From the NCBI GenBank assembly GCA_963765675.1, contig CAVXXK010000001.1, positions 1,856,001-1,920,000 of the forward strand: a stretch of 64,000 bases of DNA. The letters run 5' to 3'. Shown here in pieces: positions 4,059-60,516 of the stretch. Numbering within the stretch: position 1 is the stretch's first letter; the number at the start of each line of letters is the position of its first letter. Below the pieces are notes generated by a model. It was not told the origin of the DNA and did no database searches. It saw only the letters and a program-made list of their open reading frames with translations. This DNA comes from an uncultured delta proteobacterium (GTDB lineage Bacteria; Desulfobacterota; Binatia; Binatales; Binataceae). The position numbers and the translations under genes were made by a program.

Positions 4059-5312
4059 GTGACCGCAGTTGACACCCTCATAATTATTTTCATCGCGATT
4101 GTCGTAGGGGCCGGCATCACCTTCGTCGGCGTGCTCATCCAATGGAGCCTGCGCAAGGCGCGGCCCAGCACGCTGATTCCTCCGCAATCCGCGCCTCCGG
4201 AAATGCCTCCGATAACGCCTCCGCTCGACGATCTGCAACAACCGCCGCCGGCCGCGCCGCACGGGCCGTCCGCGGCGCCATCGATCGAGCCCGGGCCGCC
4301 AATCGTCGCGGAAGAGATTCCGCCGCCAGAAGCTCCGAAAGTATCGGCTCCGTCCGCTGAAGTTGTCCGAGCGCCGGTGCGAATCGGGATCGGGCTGCGC
4401 AAGACTCGCGAGAATTTCCTCGCCCGAATTCGCTCCGCGATCACGGGGGCGAAAAAAGCCGACGAGATTTACGAAGGGCTTGAAGAAGCTTTGATCGCCG
4501 CCGATGTCGGCGTCGAATCCTCGATGAAACTTGCTGCCGCGGTGCGCGAACGGCTGGGTAACGACAATCGTCCCGACGTGATTCGCGACGCGCTAAAGGC
4601 GGAGATCTCGACGATGCTCGCCAGCGCCGACCGTGCACCCGCCGCGCCGGCGCAAGGCCCGATCGTGATCATGCTGGTGGGCGTCAACGGCGTCGGCAAG
4701 ACCACGACCGTGGCCAAGCTTGCGGCTCGGATGCGAGCCGAGCGCGGCGCGGTGGTCGTCGCGGCGGCGGATACTTTTCGCGCGGCGGCGATCGAGCAGC
4801 TCGAGGTCTGGTGCGACCGGGTTGGCGCGGACATGATCAAGCATCAGCCGGGCAGCGACCCTGCCGCCGTCGCCTTCGACGCGGTCAGGGCGGGAATCGC
4901 GCGCAAGGCCGGCGCGGTGATAATCGACACCGCGGGGCGCTTGCAGACCAAGGTTAACCTGATGGAGGAGCTCAAGAAGATCGCGCGAGTGGTCGCGCGC
5001 GAGCTGCCCGGCGCGCCGCACGAGACCTGGCTGGTGCTCGACGCGAACACCGGCCAGAACGCGCTCAGCCAGGCGCGGATTTTCGGCGACGCAGTGCCTC
5101 TGACGGGCGTGGTCCTGGCCAAGCTCGACAGCACCGCCAAGGGCGGCGTGATCGTCGCGATCGCGGACCGGCTCGGCGTGCCGGTCAGGTTCGTTGGCTT
5201 GGGCGAAGGAATCGAGGATCTGCGGGAGTTCGATGCGCACGAATTCGTCGAGGCGCTGTTCGAGAGCGCCGACGGCGAGAGCGTGAGTGCAAGTGGTTCT
5301 TATGCGGCTTGA
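4059..5312 (+). CDS. ftsY: Signal recognition particle receptor FtsY with N-terminal TM anchor and Pro-rich linker
   Basis: GVNGVGKTTT, DTFRAAA, DTAGR, KLDSTAKGG; start GTG 4059 (alternative 4029). Confidence 0.95.
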   Translation: MTAVDTLIIIFIAIVVGAGITFVGVLIQWSLRKARPSTLIPPQSAPPEMPPITPPLDDLQQPPPAAPHGPSAAPSIEPGPPIVAEEIPPPEAPKVSAPSAEVVRAPVRIGIGLRKTRENFLARIRSAITGAKKADEIYEGLEEALIAADVGVESSMKLAAAVRERLGNDNRPDVIRDALKAEISTMLASADRAPAAPAQGPIVIMLVGVNGVGKTTTVAKLAARMRAERGAVVVAAADTFRAAAIEQLEVWCDRVGADMIKHQPGSDPAAVAFDAVRAGIARKAGAVIIDTAGRLQTKVNLMEELKKIARVVARELPGAPHETWLVLDANTGQNALSQARIFGDAVPLTGVVLAKLDSTAKGGVIVAIADRLGVPVRFVGLGEGIEDLREFDAHEFVEALFESADGESVSASGSYAA

Positions 5313-5338
5313 CAGGCTGGTTTATCGAAAATTAAACT
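5309..5338 (+). promoter_or_regulatory. sigma70-type promoter for the zapB-zapA operon
   Basis: TTGACA-18 nt-TAAACT immediately upstream of the zapB-like gene. Confidence 0.55.
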
Positions 5339-5358
5339 AAAGGTAGAAGTTTTGTCTT

Positions 5359-5613
5359 ATGGCGACCCCGATTGACGTTCTAAAGCAGCTAGACGAGCGG
5401 ATTCAATCCTCGGTAAACCGGCTCCAGCAGTTGCGCCGCGAAAATGATGCACTCGCGCAGAAGCTGGCCGAAAGCGAAAAGCGCCTGGCCGAGGCCCAGG
5501 CCCAAGCGCGCCAGTTCGAGCAGGAGCGCAAGCTGCACGAGACCGAGCGTACCGAGGTGCGCACGAGGATCGAAAAAATCCTGTCGAGGTTTGACGGGAT
5601 AGAACTCGGATAG
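5359..5613 (+). CDS. zapB: ZapB-like coiled-coil cell division protein
   Basis: 84-aa coiled coil (LKQLDERIQSSV...VRTRIEKILSRF) directly upstream of zapA. Confidence 0.65.
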   Translation: MATPIDVLKQLDERIQSSVNRLQQLRRENDALAQKLAESEKRLAEAQAQARQFEQERKLHETERTEVRTRIEKILSRFDGIELG

Positions 5614-5633
5614 AGACGTAATTCGGCCGCGAT

Positions 5634-5915
5634 ATGAAAGGCGTCAACGTCGAAATAATGGGCCAGGCCCTGACCGTCGCCAGCGATGGCGGCGACACTT
5701 ACGTGCAAGACCTGGCCCACGCGGTAGACGCCAAGATCAAGGAGATTCGTGGCGGCGGAACGCAAGCAGTCAGCTCGATTCATCTTGCGATCCTGGCCGC
5801 GCTTAACTTCGCCGACGAGCTCGAACGCCTGCGCCTTGAGCATCAGGCATTGGTCGAGCGTATCGAGGCGATGAACAAGAGGCTCAGCGCAGCAATTGAC
5901 GGCACCCAGGCATAG
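5634..5915 (+). CDS. zapA: Cell division protein ZapA
   Basis: VNVEIMGQALTV...LAHAVDAKIKEI...LAILAALNFADEL. Confidence 0.9.
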   Translation: MKGVNVEIMGQALTVASDGGDTYVQDLAHAVDAKIKEIRGGGTQAVSSIHLAILAALNFADELERLRLEHQALVERIEAMNKRLSAAIDGTQA

Positions 5916-6186: not shown

Positions 6187-6825
6187 GTGGCGGACGAAAA
6201 GAAATACCTGCGCGCGATCCTTACGGACTGCCGCGCCGCTGTCACCTCCGAGTGCGCACGCGCGCGTTCGCAGGATATCGCGCGGCGTTTGCTCGCCGCG
6301 GATTTCTACCGCCGCGCGCAAACAGTTCTGCTCTACGCCTCCACGGACAACGAAGTCTCGACCGAATCGATCATGGCGGACGCGCTCGCGTCGCGGAAAA
6401 CGGTGATGCTGCCGCGCTACGACCGCGCTCGCCGCCGTTACGAGGCTGCGCGTGTGGCCGCGATCGAGGCGCTCGCTCCAGGAGCATTCGGAATTCTCGA
6501 ACCGCCGGCGGACGCGCCTCCAGCTTCGCCCGGCGATCTCGCCGGCGCCCTCGCGTGCGTTCCCGGCGTCGCGTTCGGAAAGATGGGCCAGCGGCTGGGA
6601 CGCGGCCAAGGCCATTATGATCGTTTCCTCGCGGAGTTCTGCGCGGAAGCGATCACGGTCGGTCTTGCCTATTCGTTCCAGCTGCTCGATCGGATTCCCG
6701 AAGAATCATTCGATCGGCGGCTCAACTTGATCGTCACCGAGTCTGCCGTTTATCGCGCCGCGGATGCTGAAGCGCGTCCGCGCGATCCGGCGGGCCAAGG
6801 AGGTACACCAGGGTGGCTCTCATAA
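6187..6825 (+). CDS. ygfA: 5-formyltetrahydrofolate cyclo-ligase
   Basis: FGILEP, VPGVAF..G.RLGRGQGHYDRFL, GLAYSFQ. Confidence 0.92.
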   Translation: MADEKKYLRAILTDCRAAVTSECARARSQDIARRLLAADFYRRAQTVLLYASTDNEVSTESIMADALASRKTVMLPRYDRARRRYEAARVAAIEALAPGAFGILEPPADAPPASPGDLAGALACVPGVAFGKMGQRLGRGQGHYDRFLAEFCAEAITVGLAYSFQLLDRIPEESFDRRLNLIVTESAVYRAADAEARPRDPAGQGGTPGWLS

Positions 6826-8417
6826 CCGCAATCCTGGGATTCGTTGTTGGTGGCGCGGTCTTCTTTGTGTGGGGAATGATGCGGCGGCGCACAGACGCCG
6901 TCGATCATGAAGCCGCGCGCGCTCAGGCCGAAGAAATTAGCAAAGAGATAGCCAGGGAGGCTCAAACCAGAAGCGAACTGATCGTCAAAGAGGCCGAAGT
7001 AAAGGCCAAGGATCTGGTCGTCGGCGCGCGCGCCGATGCGGAGCGCGAAGTTCGCGACCGCAGGCGCGAGCTGCAGGCGGCGGAGGCCAAGCACGAGTCG
7101 CGCGAAGAGGCGTTCGAGAAGCGGCAAGAGGCGTTCGAGCGCCGCGAAGCTGACTTGAATCGCCGCGACCAGGCAATCCGCACCCGCGAGAAAAACTTGG
7201 CCGACAAGGAGGCGCAGAACCAGGCGCTGCTCGAGGAGAAGCTCGCGCAGCATCAGGCGCTCATCGACGAGGCCCGCACCAAGCTCGAAGCTGTGGCCGG
7301 CCTCACGCGCGACGAAGCCAAGCGCACCCTGATGGACGAGATGCTTGGGCAGGCGCGCACCGAATCGGCCAAGCATATTCGCGTGATCGAGGAAGAGGCG
7401 CGCGAGGAAGCCGACCGCCGTGCGAAGCGAATAGTGTCGATCGCGATCGAGCGGCTCGCGGGCGAGTTCGTCGCCGAGCGCACCGTGTCGGTGATCGCAC
7501 TCCCGTCGGACGAAATGAAGGGCCGCATCATCGGGCGCGAAGGGCGCAATATCCGCGCAATCGAGGCCGCCACCGGCGTCGATATAATCATCGATGACAC
7601 GCCCGAAGCGGTGGTGATCTCGTGCCACAATCCGATTCGGCGCGAGATCGCGCGGGTCGCGCTCGAGAAGCTCATCTCCGACGGCCGGATTCATCCGGGA
7701 CGGATCGAGGAAGTCGTGCGCAAGGCCGAGCAGGACGTCGAGGAATCGATCCGCGAAGCCGGGCAGCGCGCGATTATCGAAGTCGGAGTGCATGGGATTC
7801 ATCCGGAGCTGGTCAAGCTGCTCGGGATGCTCAAGTACCGGTACTCGTACGCGCAGAACGTGCTGATGCATTCGATCGAGGCGGCGTTTATCTGCGGCGC
7901 GATGGCTGCCGAGCTGGGCCTCAACGAAAAGCAGGCGCGGCGCGCGGCGCTGTTGCATGATATCGGCAAGGCGCTGACGCACGAGGTTGAAGGCTCGCAC
8001 GCGCTTATCGGCGGCGAGCTCGCGCGCAAGTACGGCGAGTCGGCGAAGATCGTTAACGCGATCGCGGCGCATCACGAGGAAGTCAAGGCCGAAACGATTC
8101 TCGCGCCTCTCGTCGACGCGGCAGACGCTTTGTCGGGTGCGCGTCCGGGCGCACGGCGCGAAGTGCTCGAAAGCTACGTCAAGCGGCTCGAGGATCTCGA
8201 GAAGATCGCCAAGTCGTTCAAGGGCGTCGAGAAGTGCTTCGCGGTCCAGGCCGGCCGCGAGATGCGCGTGATCGTCGAGCCCAATCAGATCACGGACGAA
8301 GACACGGTGATGCTCGCGCGCGACGTGGCGCGGAAGATCGAAACCGACATGACCTATCCTGGGCAGATCCGGGTGACCGTCATCAGGGAGACGCGCGCGA
8401 CCGAGCTGGCCAAGTAG
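6813..8417 (+). CDS. rny: Ribonuclease Y
   Basis: N-terminal TM, coiled coil, KH domain (MKGRIIGREGRNIR), HD domain (LLHDIGK), RETRATELAK C-terminus. Confidence 0.97.
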   Translation: MALITAILGFVVGGAVFFVWGMMRRRTDAVDHEAARAQAEEISKEIAREAQTRSELIVKEAEVKAKDLVVGARADAEREVRDRRRELQAAEAKHESREEAFEKRQEAFERREADLNRRDQAIRTREKNLADKEAQNQALLEEKLAQHQALIDEARTKLEAVAGLTRDEAKRTLMDEMLGQARTESAKHIRVIEEEAREEADRRAKRIVSIAIERLAGEFVAERTVSVIALPSDEMKGRIIGREGRNIRAIEAATGVDIIIDDTPEAVVISCHNPIRREIARVALEKLISDGRIHPGRIEEVVRKAEQDVEESIREAGQRAIIEVGVHGIHPELVKLLGMLKYRYSYAQNVLMHSIEAAFICGAMAAELGLNEKQARRAALLHDIGKALTHEVEGSHALIGGELARKYGESAKIVNAIAAHHEEVKAETILAPLVDAADALSGARPGARREVLESYVKRLEDLEKIAKSFKGVEKCFAVQAGREMRVIVEPNQITDEDTVMLARDVARKIETDMTYPGQIRVTVIRETRATELAK

Positions 8418-12709: not shown

Positions 12710-13220
12710 ATGAAGGCTTTACGGCTGTTTTCATTAATCGGCACTGTCCTCCTGCTCAGTGGCGCTGCCCTGACGCTAACCTCGTCTTATGCTCGCGCGC
12801 AGGATGGCTCTGTTTTTGATAGCCAGCAGCAGTCGCAGAGCGATATCGGCACATCGCCGGACGCGAAGAAGCCTCCGCTAACGGTCAGCGGAGCCTGGTC
12901 AGGAACGCTCGAAGATAATTTGGCGGGAGCGGGAACCCTGAATGTCGATTTTACTGAAGCTCCGAATGGGCAGCTGAGCGGGAATTGGTCGTTCACGTTC
13001 GAATCGGGAACCGACACAGGCACCATCGTTGGCAAAGCCACCGCAACGAAGGTCAAAATTGCGTTCGTATTCACTCCAAAGGCGCCCTTCATTCATTGCA
13101 AATTCTCGGTGAGCGACGCGCACGCCACCGATACCGAAATAGCCGGAAATTATCATTTCACGGCGATGCGGGCAGCTTACGCATAAGGAGCGCGGCGCCT
13201 TGGAAATCTCGCCGGAGTAG
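12710..13220 (+). CDS. Secreted beta-rich hypothetical protein; apparent +1 frameshift near 13166
   Basis: Signal peptide (ARA-Q), VSGAWSGTL, LSGNWSF. ORF as given ends 13186; removing one base yields ...FTACGQLTHKERGALEISPE* ending 13220. Confidence 0.6.
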
Positions 13221-13240: not shown

Positions 13241-13465
13241 TCAACTAGCGTCGGGGAGGCTGACGCTGACGCCTCCTCCGTCGGTTACTCGGCTGCCCAC
13301 TTGGGCGGTTGAGGTTCTTATCGACGAACTCACTTTCTGGCCGGTGGTGCGCATGCCGCCAAATGCTGTCACCGCGATCGCGGCGAGCAGCAGGGCGTAC
13401 TCGACCATCGTCTGACCGCGTGCGGCGCCGAGAGCGCTCGCGCGCTTGATTGGATTCGTTGTCAA
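13241..13465 (-). CDS. flp: Flp/Fap type IVb pilin
   Basis: RG|QTMVEYALLLAAIAV prepilin cleavage/Flp motif (G|xxxxEY) and hydrophobic helix; TTG start with RBS gagga. Confidence 0.8.
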   Translation of the reverse strand: MTTNPIKRASALGAARGQTMVEYALLLAAIAVTAFGGMRTTGQKVSSSIRTSTAQVGSRVTDGGGVSVSLPDAS

Positions 13466-13479
13466 TTGATTCCTCGGGG

Positions 13480-13725
13480 CTATCTGTGGCGCGGACGGCG
13501 AATCGCGCTCAGGATGAAGATCAAATCGGACTTGGTACGGACCGATCCGAGCATCGCGACGCGCGATAGAGCCTCGAGCTCGTGCGGCTGGACGTTGTGG
13601 CGGCGCAGAAGAGCGTGGTCCTCGCAAAACACCTCGAACACCGCGCGCTTGACTGATAGCTGACGCGGTTTCGCGGTTTCTTTGGTCGGCTCGTGGGCGG
13701 TATTTTCGTCCCGATGGGTCGGCAC
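13480..13725 (-). CDS. Small protein homologous to the C-terminal domain of the XRE regulator at 60088-60516
   Basis: RBS aggag before GTG; 20/50 ungapped identities to the regulator C-terminus (HNxxxxExExLSRVAxxGxVR..D..IL..R). Confidence 0.8.
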   Translation of the reverse strand: MPTHRDENTAHEPTKETAKPRQLSVKRAVFEVFCEDHALLRRHNVQPHELEALSRVAMLGSVRTKSDLIFILSAIRRPRHR

Positions 13726-13780
13726 TTTCGGTTACTCCTAAAGACACGCAGGATTACGCGTCCGGTATGGCAGACTCTAA

Positions 13781-13797
13781 CGCAGGGAGCGTGCCAG
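13781..13797 (-). promoter_or_regulatory. sigma54 (-24/-12) promoter for the small protein-flp operon
   Basis: Minus strand CTGGCACGCTCCCTGCG with exact GG-N10-GC spacing, about 55 nt before the start codon. Confidence 0.7.
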
Positions 13798-13911
13798 ATC
13801 GGAAAATCAACGAAAATACTGTTCTTTGTTTCAATCATCGGTGCGAGGGTGTCAAATAGTAGCAGTGATTAGGCGGTCTGATGTTTCATCGGAGCGGAAT
13901 AAGTAGAGTCT

Positions 13912-13930
13912 AATGCAACAAATTTGCATT
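13912..13930. promoter_or_regulatory. Palindrome, candidate enhancer-binding-protein UAS
   Basis: AATGCAA-caaat-TTGCATT, about 120 bp upstream of the sigma54 site. Confidence 0.4.
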
Positions 13931-13962: not shown

Positions 13963-13989
13963 AAAAAAGGCGGCCCTTTCGGGCCGCCC
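13963..13989 (-). terminator. Rho-independent terminator
   Basis: Minus strand ggcggccc-gaaa-gggccgcc followed by tttttt, just after the oxidoreductase stop. Confidence 0.85.
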
Positions 13990-14012
13990 TGGTTCGCGAT
14001 ACGAGCGCGGGA

Positions 14013-15038
14013 TTATTGCGGATCGGAGAGCTTCAGTAGCTGCTTGCCGAAGTTGGCGCCGGTGAAGAGGCGGATGATGGTCTTGGGCGCGTTCTCGAGA
14101 CCGTGTTGAAGATCGATCTGATTTTTGATCTTGCCGTCGGCATACCACTTCGACAGTTCGGCGATCGCCTGCGGATATTTCTGCGCGAAGTGGAAGACCA
14201 GGAATCCTTCCATCCGGGCGCCGCGGAAGATCAGGTTGAAATAGTTTTTCGGCGGATGCGCCGCGACGCCTTCGGCCTCGTTGTATTGCGAGATCGCGCC
14301 GCACAGCACGACGCGCGCACCGTTGGAGATACGCGCCAGCGCCTGATCGAGGATCTCGCCGCCGACGTTGTCGAAGTAGATGTCGATTCCCTTGGGGCAA
14401 TGCTTCGACAACGCGTCGCCGACTTTTTCGTTCTTGTAGTCAATCGAGGCGTCGAAGCCAGCTTCCTTGGTGAGCCATTCGCACTTGGCGCGTCCGCCCG
14501 CGATTCCGACGACGCGGCATCCCTTGATCTTTGCGATCATCCCGGCGACCGAGCCGGTTGCTCCCGCCGCGCCCGAGACCACGAAGGTCTCGCCGGCCTT
14601 CGGCAATCCTACCAGGAGCGTGCCGAAGTAGGCCGTCAATCCGGTGGTGCCGAGGATCGAGAGCGCAAGGATCGGATCGGTGCCTGCCGGAAGCTTTTGC
14701 ATCCCGAAGATGCCTTCGCCCTCGCTGACCGTGTAGTCCTCCCATCCGAGCAGGCCCTGGATCAGGTCGCCCTTGGCAAAGCCGGGACGTTTGGATTCGA
14801 CGACCTGTCCGACTGCGCCCGCGCGCATCGGCTGTCCGAGCGGGATTGCGGGCATGTACGTGTCCATCGACATCCATCCGCGCTGCGTGGGATCGAAGGA
14901 GAAGGCGAGGTTGCGCACCAGGACCTGGCCGTCTTTGAGCCCGGGGACGGCGGCCTCGTTCCATTTGAAGTCGGTTTCTTTGATTAGGCCCTGCGGGCGC
15001 GACGCGATAAGCCATCTGCGATTTTTCAGTTCCGCCAT
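14013..15038 (-). CDS. NADP-dependent oxidoreductase (prostaglandin reductase/CurA-like, MDR)
   Basis: LGTTGLTAYFG, VVSGAAGATGS, GIDIYFDNVGG, CGAISQYN, GANFGK. Confidence 0.93.
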   Translation of the reverse strand: MAELKNRRWLIASRPQGLIKETDFKWNEAAVPGLKDGQVLVRNLAFSFDPTQRGWMSMDTYMPAIPLGQPMRAGAVGQVVESKRPGFAKGDLIQGLLGWEDYTVSEGEGIFGMQKLPAGTDPILALSILGTTGLTAYFGTLLVGLPKAGETFVVSGAAGATGSVAGMIAKIKGCRVVGIAGGRAKCEWLTKEAGFDASIDYKNEKVGDALSKHCPKGIDIYFDNVGGEILDQALARISNGARVVLCGAISQYNEAEGVAAHPPKNYFNLIFRGARMEGFLVFHFAQKYPQAIAELSKWYADGKIKNQIDLQHGLENAPKTIIRLFTGANFGKQLLKLSDPQ

Positions 15039-15117
15039 GTTGATTTCCTCTGTGATGATAGTGGGCTTGCTTGAGTTCGGCATTTATCCGATAGACAACT
15101 CTCGCACAAGGATTCGC

Positions 15118-60087: not shown

Positions 60088-60516
60088 CTAGCGGCCGACC
60101 GCGTGGCGAACCGTGGTCAGGATATACAGGAAGTCGCGCGGCGAACGGACGTCGCCCATCAGCGCGACCCGGCTGAGCATCTCCATTTCTTCGCCGGAGA
60201 TATTGTGAATCCGGCGCAGTTGCTCATTCTTGCGGAAGTCTTCCCATGCCGAGCTGGCGGGAGTTTCCGGTTCCGGATTGAGCAGCGCTTGCGCGCGCGG
60301 ATTGGCAAGGAAAAAGAGCTCGCGCCGATCGAGGCCCAGCACTTCGGCCAGCCGCGTGACGATCTTGTCGGACGGATGGCGCTTTCCGGACTCCAGGTGG
60401 CCGACGTACGGAGTCGAAGTTTTGATCCGGCGCGCGACCTCTTCCTGGGTGAGGTCAAGCTGGCGGCGCCGTTCGCGAATCACCTGCCCGAAATTTCGTT
60501 CCTTGGTCCGTGCCAT
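60088..60516 (-). CDS. XRE-family HTH transcriptional regulator with a distinct C-terminal domain
   Basis: FGQVIRERRRQLDLTQEEVARRI..S..YVGHLESGKRHPS…RLAEVL; RBS gaggg. Confidence 0.92.
   Translation of the reverse strand: MARTKERNFGQVIRERRRQLDLTQEEVARRIKTSTPYVGHLESGKRHPSDKIVTRLAEVLGLDRRELFFLANPRAQALLNPEPETPASSAWEDFRKNEQLRRIHNISGEEMEMLSRVALMGDVRSPRDFLYILTTVRHAVGR

Follow-up and report, generated by a model that had tools for sequence, protein, structure and literature searches.

The 64-kb stretch of DNA analyzed here (the window) belongs to the genome of an uncultured soil bacterium of the Binataceae, which is called G000; other genomes likewise carry G numbers. On the minus strand of the window lies a small gene (13480-13725, GTG start at 13725) that codes for a protein of 81 amino acids (aa), made up of a variable tail (residues 1-27) and a single helical domain (residues ~28-78). 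This domain of about 50 residues, here termed X, is specific to the Binataceae and is otherwise the C-terminus of many XRE-type helix-turn-helix (HTH) regulators, called XRE-X below. The 81-aa protein has no HTH, and its gene stands between a sigma54-type promoter and the gene of an orphan Flp-type pilin. The feature is real, conserved, and tidy. Its most economical account, which we rate a little short of an even chance, is that the small protein modulates XRE-X regulators by mimicking their domain, and that it is made from the sigma54 promoter together with the orphan pilin. This would be a new form of SinI-like switch, based on a hitherto undescribed domain from a lineage that is uncultured; the interpretation is plausible, testable, and unproven.

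As judged from sequence comparisons, the 81-aa open reading frame (ORF) is a real, conserved, and selected gene. A ribosome-binding site (RBS), AGGAG, is present 9 nt upstream of it (13735-13739, minus strand), and a GGAG-type RBS and the start codon are conserved in 7/7 orthologous loci. Orthologs with 55-77% identity occur in 6 of the 10 other genomes searched of the genus, and the databases hold 13 homologs besides the window's own protein (60-83% identity), of which 12 are 77-92 aa long and two are labeled Candidatus Binataceae. Over the whole length of the gene, the ratio of nonsynonymous to synonymous substitution rates (dN/dS) is 0.17-0.74 in 21 pairs. Within the X domain the median is 0.23 (range 0.05-0.65, 20 of the 21 pairs being computable), compared to 0.92 in the 27-residue tail (range 0.33-1.68, 17 of 21 pairs computable), so purifying selection acts on the domain and not on the tail. 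The earlier note on this DNA had also considered a nonconserved ORF with a dN/dS near 1; orthologs exist, and a decayed HTH pseudogene is ruled out by the low dN/dS of the domain along with the conserved RBS and start.

The same note had aligned the protein by hand, without gaps, to the end of an XRE regulator encoded 46 kb away, and this likeness holds up. BLASTP finds 20 identities and 33 positives over 49 ungapped positions (E 3e-13 in a single comparison), pairing residues 28-76 of the small protein with residues 89-137 of the regulator. The regulator (60088-60516, minus strand, 142 aa) carries HTH_3 at residues 13-67 as its sole Pfam domain, at 56.3 bits against a cut-off of 23, and X at residues 89-142 (window 60091-60252). 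The small protein, in keeping with its description as free of an HTH, matches zero Pfam families at E<=1, and its 27-residue tail is too short to hold one.

The X domain belongs to no named family, as far as sequence searches reach. The sole NCBIfam match of the 81-aa protein scores 13.5 bits against a cut-off of 500, PHROGs give no match, and a PDB sequence search with the X-domain profile returns 0 matches at E<=10; the suspicion that the shared domain stood outside the named families has thus been borne out in all four collections. Searches with the small protein find X in 142 of 151 Binataceae genomes, 7 of them unpublished, with up to 16 matches per genome. A profile built from seven sequences retrieves 524 cluster representatives at E<=1e-3 among 1.84 billion, so a new domain family is defined. 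The architectures of the best 149 of these 524 were counted by hand: 57 have an XRE HTH N-terminal to X, 3 have unrelated families that look like gene-call artifacts, and 89 have nothing. Many of the 89 are fused forms that have been cut at the N-terminus. No Pfam family covers X in any of the best 149.

The genome under study holds seven copies of X, and both HTH-fused and HTH-less forms are among them, a co-occurrence that had been proposed as a check. Four copies are XRE-X genes (the one at window position 60088 and those at C1:1976157, C6:209388, and C3:420367). The three HTH-less copies are the window ORF, one of ~73 aa at C6:275942, and one of ~200 aa at C6:355911. The X domain of the window ORF is 36-41% identical to the XRE-X domains versus 45-52% to the other HTH-less copies. 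A quick maximum-likelihood tree was made from 173 X-domain rows and 54 columns, after removal of one of the 168 hmmsearch domain hits for shortness and of the database entry of the window's protein as a duplicate. In this tree 44 rows, none of which has an HTH, form one clade (SH-aLRT 84) that includes the groups of the window ORF, C6:275942, and C6:355911 as well as several other small-protein groups.

In some relatives the two kinds of gene are found next to each other. Four of the five searched genomes of genus g22 (G090, G134, G067, and G140) and G009 of genus g3 have an XRE-X gene that is followed, after about 50-140 nt and in the same direction, by a small gene for an HTH-less X protein. 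Over the whole length, the XRE-X proteins of g22 have 61-65% identity to the regulator of the window; synteny beyond this, which would speak for orthology, is absent. Fusions are seen as well. The metagenome proteins P0015 and P0018 read HTH-X-X and P0016 reads HTH-HTH-X-X, and two tandem X domains are present in each of P0015, P0016, P0017, P0018, and P0019. Such tandem proteins look like a single-chain version of a dimer. Adjacency and fusion commonly point, if indirectly, to a relation that is functional and possibly physical, here between one X domain and another; along with the single HTH-less clade, they lend the domain-mimic account indirect support.

Some further arrangements of X genes were seen in passing. 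In locus L048 (G009:C1), the XRE-X gene at ~6485-6996, which precedes a small X gene, matches the window's regulator in two frames, pointing to a frameshift or a sequencing error. L041 (G096:C16:270131-271541) has two tandem XRE-X genes ~1.2 kb apart on one strand. Two X-only genes adjoin in L028 and again in L044. Proteins from these two loci (L028:2708-3172 and L044:1300-1989, both on the plus strand), as well as P0094 and P0116, combine an HTH-less X with a low-complexity linker and, by eye, a hydrophobic stretch of ~20 residues, and they may be membrane-anchored.

The promoter of the small gene was recognized as a sigma54-type -24/-12 site, TGGCACGCTCCCTGC (13782-13796, minus strand), with 1 mismatch to TGGCAC-N5-TTGC; the GC of its -12 element sits 56 nt before the GTG start. 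As a bare pattern match TGGCACGCTCCCTGC does not exceed chance: with <=2 mismatches allowed, 57.65 matches to the pattern are expected in the window and 48 are found, and 4 matches have 1 mismatch. The evidence comes from the alignment of 7 orthologous upstream regions, in which TGGCA and TGC are invariant (GG and GC in 7/7) and their spacing is fixed while the surrounding spacer varies. The same motif also precedes a more distant copy of the gene in the unpublished genome G028. This conservation across orthologous loci makes the sigma54 site credible, and the correctly spaced -24/-12 site of the earlier note is upheld. One rpoN gene is present in the genome, along with 18 sigma54 activators that match Sigma54_activat strongly (E<=2.9e-51). 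Strict -24/-12 motifs are also found before an rcpC-like gene of the tad locus and before another flp gene, so sigma54 control of pilus genes seems usual in the organism. In Pseudomonas, the type IVa pilin gene pilA is under sigma54/PilR control.

Upstream of the promoter, the 7-locus alignment brings out an inverted repeat conserved in both arms (13882-13921, minus strand). It consists of TTGTTGCAT (13913-13921), 23 nt, and a second arm (13882-13889) that reads ATGAAACA in the window and ATGCAACA in the six other loci. The repeat lies ~90-125 nt upstream of the -24 element and is a candidate enhancer, or upstream activating sequence (UAS), for a sigma54 activator. A conserved block, CTGCTAC (13859-13865, minus strand), lies between repeat and promoter. 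When 40 strict sigma54 motifs were searched up to 160 nt upstream for half-sites of the repeat, only single ones were seen, at 3 other places, and these were judged to be chance. The earlier note had named a different palindrome as the UAS candidate, AATGCAAATTTGTTGCATT (13912-13930). Only its right arm, which it has in common with the inverted repeat, is conserved and the left arm is not, and this palindrome is rejected as the enhancer.

The second gene of the unit codes for a divergent Flp-type prepilin of 74 aa (13244-13465, minus strand, TTG start, with GAGGA upstream). The gap between the stop of the small ORF and this gene is exactly 14 nt, as had been noted. The protein carries RG|QTMVEY (RG|QTMVEYALLLAAIAV), a G/XXXXEY-type processing motif, followed by a hydrophobic helix and a conserved but unusual C-terminal extension; the motif and the helix are common to it and the Flp genes of this genome's tad locus. 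Its Pfam score for Flp_Fap (PF04964), 24.3 bits (E 2.7e-5, residues 16-45), is below the cut-off of 32.2; only one of the six Flp-like genes found by a six-frame search of the genome passes that cut-off. Nine homologs are 55-85% identical to it, one of which is named "Flp family type IVb pilin" by NCBI and two "Flp pilus assembly pilin Flp" by JGI.

A complete tad locus is present at C1:140.7-149.6 kb (in L082, C1:134000-151000), with three tandem flp genes and, at C1:140.7-148.6 kb, the assembly genes rcpC, a secretin gene, a tadZ-like gene, tadA (T2SSE), and two T2SSF genes (tadB/C-like). Since that locus is ~1.7 Mb away, the pilin of the window is considered a divergent orphan. An NtrC-type response-regulator sigma54 activator is encoded 4 kb beyond the tad locus. 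Among the eight loci that have the promoter and the small gene, the pilin follows in six (G000, G005, G085, G072, G114, and G056). G062 has lost it, with the small gene there bordering directly on a convergent gene, and G028 has other DNA downstream. The promoter and the small gene therefore form the more stable unit. A further 15 small X-only loci had neither the sigma54 motif (0/15) nor a pilin gene (0/15). As to the proposed coupling of pilus expression to a regulator, both the promoter and the link to the pilin are kept in this genus, but the coupling is not obligatory, and the pilin is an orphan.

Read 5' to 3' on the minus strand, the locus runs from the end of an oxidoreductase gene through a terminator, an intergenic region of 240 nt, the 81-aa ORF, and the 14-nt gap to the 74-aa ORF. 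The oxidoreductase gene (14013-15083, minus strand) is of the NADP type, with Pfam ADH_N_2 and ADH_zinc_N. Its intrinsic terminator (13967-13990, minus strand) has a 10-bp stem with 8 GC pairs, a 4-nt loop, and a T-run, and the stem is conserved in the 7 aligned loci. The terminator that had been said to insulate the unit is thus real and marks its upstream edge, but it belongs to the upstream gene; none was found when one was sought 3' of the pilin gene. On the other side, a 158-aa gene (12710-13186, plus strand) converges on the pilin gene, which leaves the 81-aa ORF and the pilin as a two-gene unit. This 158-aa gene has a signal-peptide-like N-terminus and no family match, and it keeps its position in G062, where the pilin has been lost.

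The domain-mimic account can be put as a series of steps. A sigma54 activator would bind the conserved inverted repeat and fire the -24/-12 promoter. One transcript would then carry the X-only protein and the orphan pilin, as the 14-nt spacing of their genes suggests. The X-only protein would pair with the X domain of at least one XRE-X regulator and alter its oligomeric state and DNA binding, as SinI does with SinR and AimX with AimC. In this way, a pilus-related signal might reach the XRE-X regulon.

Several points weigh against this account. It presumes that X domains bind one another and that X serves the regulators for oligomerization. The HTH-less clade is old and diverged (36-40% versus 45-52% identity) and could have acquired another partner. 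The tree that defines it has moderate support from 54 columns, and outside it, many rows labeled "no HTH" probably represent fragments. Adjacency of XRE-X and X genes is seen in only 5 genomes of 2 genera, and the 12 other small X-only loci that were inspected lack an XRE-X gene up to 1.5 kb away. In the genome studied here, no XRE-X gene is linked to the small gene, the nearest being 46 kb off. That nearest gene is the 60088 regulator, one of four paralogs, which need not be the partner.

The structure models add two more such points. The AlphaFold2 (AF2) model of the small protein as a monomer is only moderate, with a predicted local distance difference test (pLDDT) score of 65 (73-76 in the domain) and helices at residues 21-35, 37-42, 47-59, and 65-76. 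Its matches to DdrO (6jq1_A at Z 4.8, and the isolated C-terminal dimerization domain 6ro6_A at Z 4.4, rmsd 3.4, 55 residues, 20% identity) are within the noise of helical bundles, in which ribosomal proteins come out on top at Z 6.9. Foldseek with the small model finds nothing in the PDB at E<=0.001, and the ESM Atlas has no usable match. The model of the XRE-X regulator is confident (pLDDT 90.5); in it the HTH domain is followed by a conserved pair of linker helices and by X, with helices at 87-96, 98-103, 108-119, and 126-141. Foldseek ranks DdrO (6jq1_B, E 8.3e-4) second for this model, with a full-length alignment, and in a VIA search only DdrO (3 of the 50 entries listed) aligns over both domains (Z ~10, rmsd ~12). 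DdrO dimerizes through its C-terminal domain, so this architecture, like the HTH-X-X fusions, is an indirect hint in favor of the domain-mimic account. Sequence profiles match DdrO only in the HTH. A DdrO-like C-terminal domain for X is, on these models, a lead and not a result. A complex prediction with the X domain of 60088 and the small protein reached a best score of 0.29 against a mark of 0.32, with no control runs, and counts neither way.

The likeliest of the other explanations, itself unlikely, is that X has a target of a different kind (for instance a ligand, DNA, RNA polymerase, sigma54, the pilin, or the machinery of the pilin) and that the X-only protein acts alone, for example as an accessory factor or regulator of the pilin. 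The homology to XRE C-termini would then reflect a common sensor or effector module. The tight 14-nt linkage to the pilin in six of eight loci would fit such a role, as would an old HTH-less clade with its own signature and the extra regions or hydrophobic segments of some HTH-less members. Fragments of ECF sigma region 2 are also found among the weak fold matches of the small model, but at Z 4.4-5.0 these are within the noise. Moreover, the pilin is dispensable, as the promoter and small gene were kept in G062 and G028, and its link is absent from the 15 further small X-only loci. The adjacent XRE-X and X genes and the HTH-X-X fusions also point back to relations between X domains.

A different kind of context is suggested by the neighbors of the XRE-X genes, which the earlier note had not foreseen. 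In this genome, every XRE-X gene except the one in the window (three of four) directly adjoins a gene for one of a set of paralogous proteins of 270-285 aa with an HE(I/L)GH motif. In G000 these HExxH genes are found at C6:209801-210622 (minus strand; L017:6414-7235), C3:419380-420094 (plus strand; L018 ~5014-5728), and C1:1974999-1975853 (minus strand; L016:4843-5697). The C3 copy, which aligns in two frames, may contain a frameshift. The proteins match Pfam Peptidase_M78 (PF06114, the IrrE-like domain) at 17-18 bits, below the cut-off of 22, and phrog_87 "metallo-protease" at E ~1e-3; 26 of 39 family members match PF06114 at E<=0.01, and HExxH is invariant. The family is specific to the Binataceae and has 463 database homologs, all unnamed ("hypothetical"). 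Two of the modules have a further gene in common: L017:7649-8362 (plus strand) and L018:3702-4439 (minus strand) code for homologous proteins of 237 and 245 aa, both beginning MELRL, which are transcribed divergently from the protease and XRE-X genes and match no Pfam family. These may be a third component of the modules. The M78 protease IrrE is reported to cleave DdrO in its C-terminal dimerization domain (PMC6868357, PMC12828697), and together with the HExxH neighbors this suggests a DdrO/IrrE-like context, in which at least part of the XRE-X family may be repressor-protease modules.

From this follows another, distinctly improbable reading, in which XRE-X proteins are ImmR/DdrO-like repressors that are cut in or near X by ImmA/IrrE-like metalloproteases, and the X-only protein is a competing substrate, an inhibitor, or an adaptor. 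It would then tune the cleavage of the repressor rather than its oligomerization. Besides the three neighboring genes and their M78 matches, locus L044, where an HExxH gene directly precedes that of an HTH-less X protein ending in a hydrophobic tail, is in line with this, as is the cleavage of DdrO by IrrE. However, the M78 matches are all under the curated cut-off, the XRE-X gene of the window has no HExxH neighbor, and no cleavage site is known. An HExxH gene lies within 1.5 kb of only 2 of 25 XRE-X loci in other genomes, in a sample that is biased, having been picked for likeness to the small protein (it includes L066 and L075 from unpublished genomes), and at 0 of the 8 sigma54/small-X loci. 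Lastly, that the ORF is nonfunctional, a chance ORF or decaying XRE remnant in the leader of the pilin transcript, is scarcely credible: the protein is short and its tail evolves nearly neutrally, but its domain is under selection, its RBS and start are conserved, its length is kept among the 13 homologs, it belongs to the 44-row HTH-less clade, and the gene is retained where the pilin has been lost.

A wider view would take in the family as a whole. In such an "X-domain network," many XRE-X repressors, some of them with cognate ImmA/IrrE-like proteases, would be titrated or sequestered by an ancient HTH-less X lineage through pairing of X domains, and in this genus one titrator would have come, with an orphan pilin, under a sigma54 enhancer. 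Taken in full, this is rather unlikely. If true, some X-only proteins would be soluble and others would have a hydrophobic, possibly membrane-anchoring tail, and a signal from a two-component system or bacterial enhancer-binding protein (bEBP) would lift the repression of an XRE-X regulon at the same time as a variant pilus subunit is produced.

Should the domain-mimic account prove right, a switch of the SinI/SinR type would have been built independently on an undescribed domain, in an uncultured and widespread soil phylum and with many paralogs per genome. It could have three layers of input, namely the sigma54 enhancer, the mimic protein, and possibly the ImmA/IrrE-like proteases. The locus is also a candidate link between the expression of a pilus subunit and a repressor network. 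As all of the proteins are shorter than 300 aa, they make a defined and cheap set to test. If binding fails, the mimic reading goes, and what stays is a conserved, apparently sigma54-driven small gene beside an orphan pilin.

Literature searches on Binatia, Binatota, and Binataceae found no description of these genes, and the comparison is with systems from other bacteria. As Flp/Tad pilins go, the pilin of the window has the typical Flp-type leader and hydrophobic helix, and a tad locus is present elsewhere in the genome. Unlike the usual Flp/Tad pilins, it is an orphan 1.7 Mb off, under the Pfam cut-off, with an unusual conserved C-terminal extension, and it is preceded by a small regulator-like gene.

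The XRE-X regulators resemble DdrO of the DdrO/IrrE system of Deinococcus and ImmR of the ImmR/ImmA system of ICEBs1 in that an XRE HTH is followed by a helical C-terminal domain of ~55 residues, and M78-like HExxH genes lie beside three of the four XRE-X genes here. They differ from DdrO/IrrE in that the profile match is to the HTH only, the fold scores of the domain are within noise, and the M78 matches are sub-threshold. Neither system is known to include a separate copy of its repressor's C-terminal domain.

The closest parallels are small proteins that act on the oligomerization of a repressor. In a recent report, SinI is described as mimicking the oligomerization domain of SinR, and AimX as acting likewise on AimC (bioRxiv 10.1101/2025.11.23.689978). 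As with AimX/AimC of the arbitrium phages, a small helical protein is here proposed to occupy the oligomerization surface of an XRE-type C-terminal domain. Unlike the gene studied here, which is chromosomal with no phage genes seen nearby, the AimX/AimC pair is phage-borne and involves different domains, and AimX is not described in that report as a homolog of the repressor domain.

With SinI/SinR of Bacillus subtilis, and also SlrA/SlrR, the locus shares a small helical protein that lacks a DNA-binding domain but has homology to an XRE-family regulator in the latter's C-terminal domain, and a small gene that adjoins the regulator gene in some relatives. X has no sequence relation to the C-termini of SinI and SinR (no Pfam match at E<=1), however, and it would be an analog at most; a SinI-like reading is plausible but unproven. 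In addition, X exceeds those domains in length (~50 aa, 3-4 helices), the small gene and the regulator gene lie apart in this genome, XRE-X paralogs are many and X-only paralogs several per genome, and the small gene is predicted to be under sigma54 control and co-transcribed with a pilin gene. Sigma54-expressed XRE regulators and radiations of XRE paralogs that control adhesins are reported in other bacteria (PMC11999139, PMC10688885), so the ingredients are not exotic. The combination and the X domain are new.

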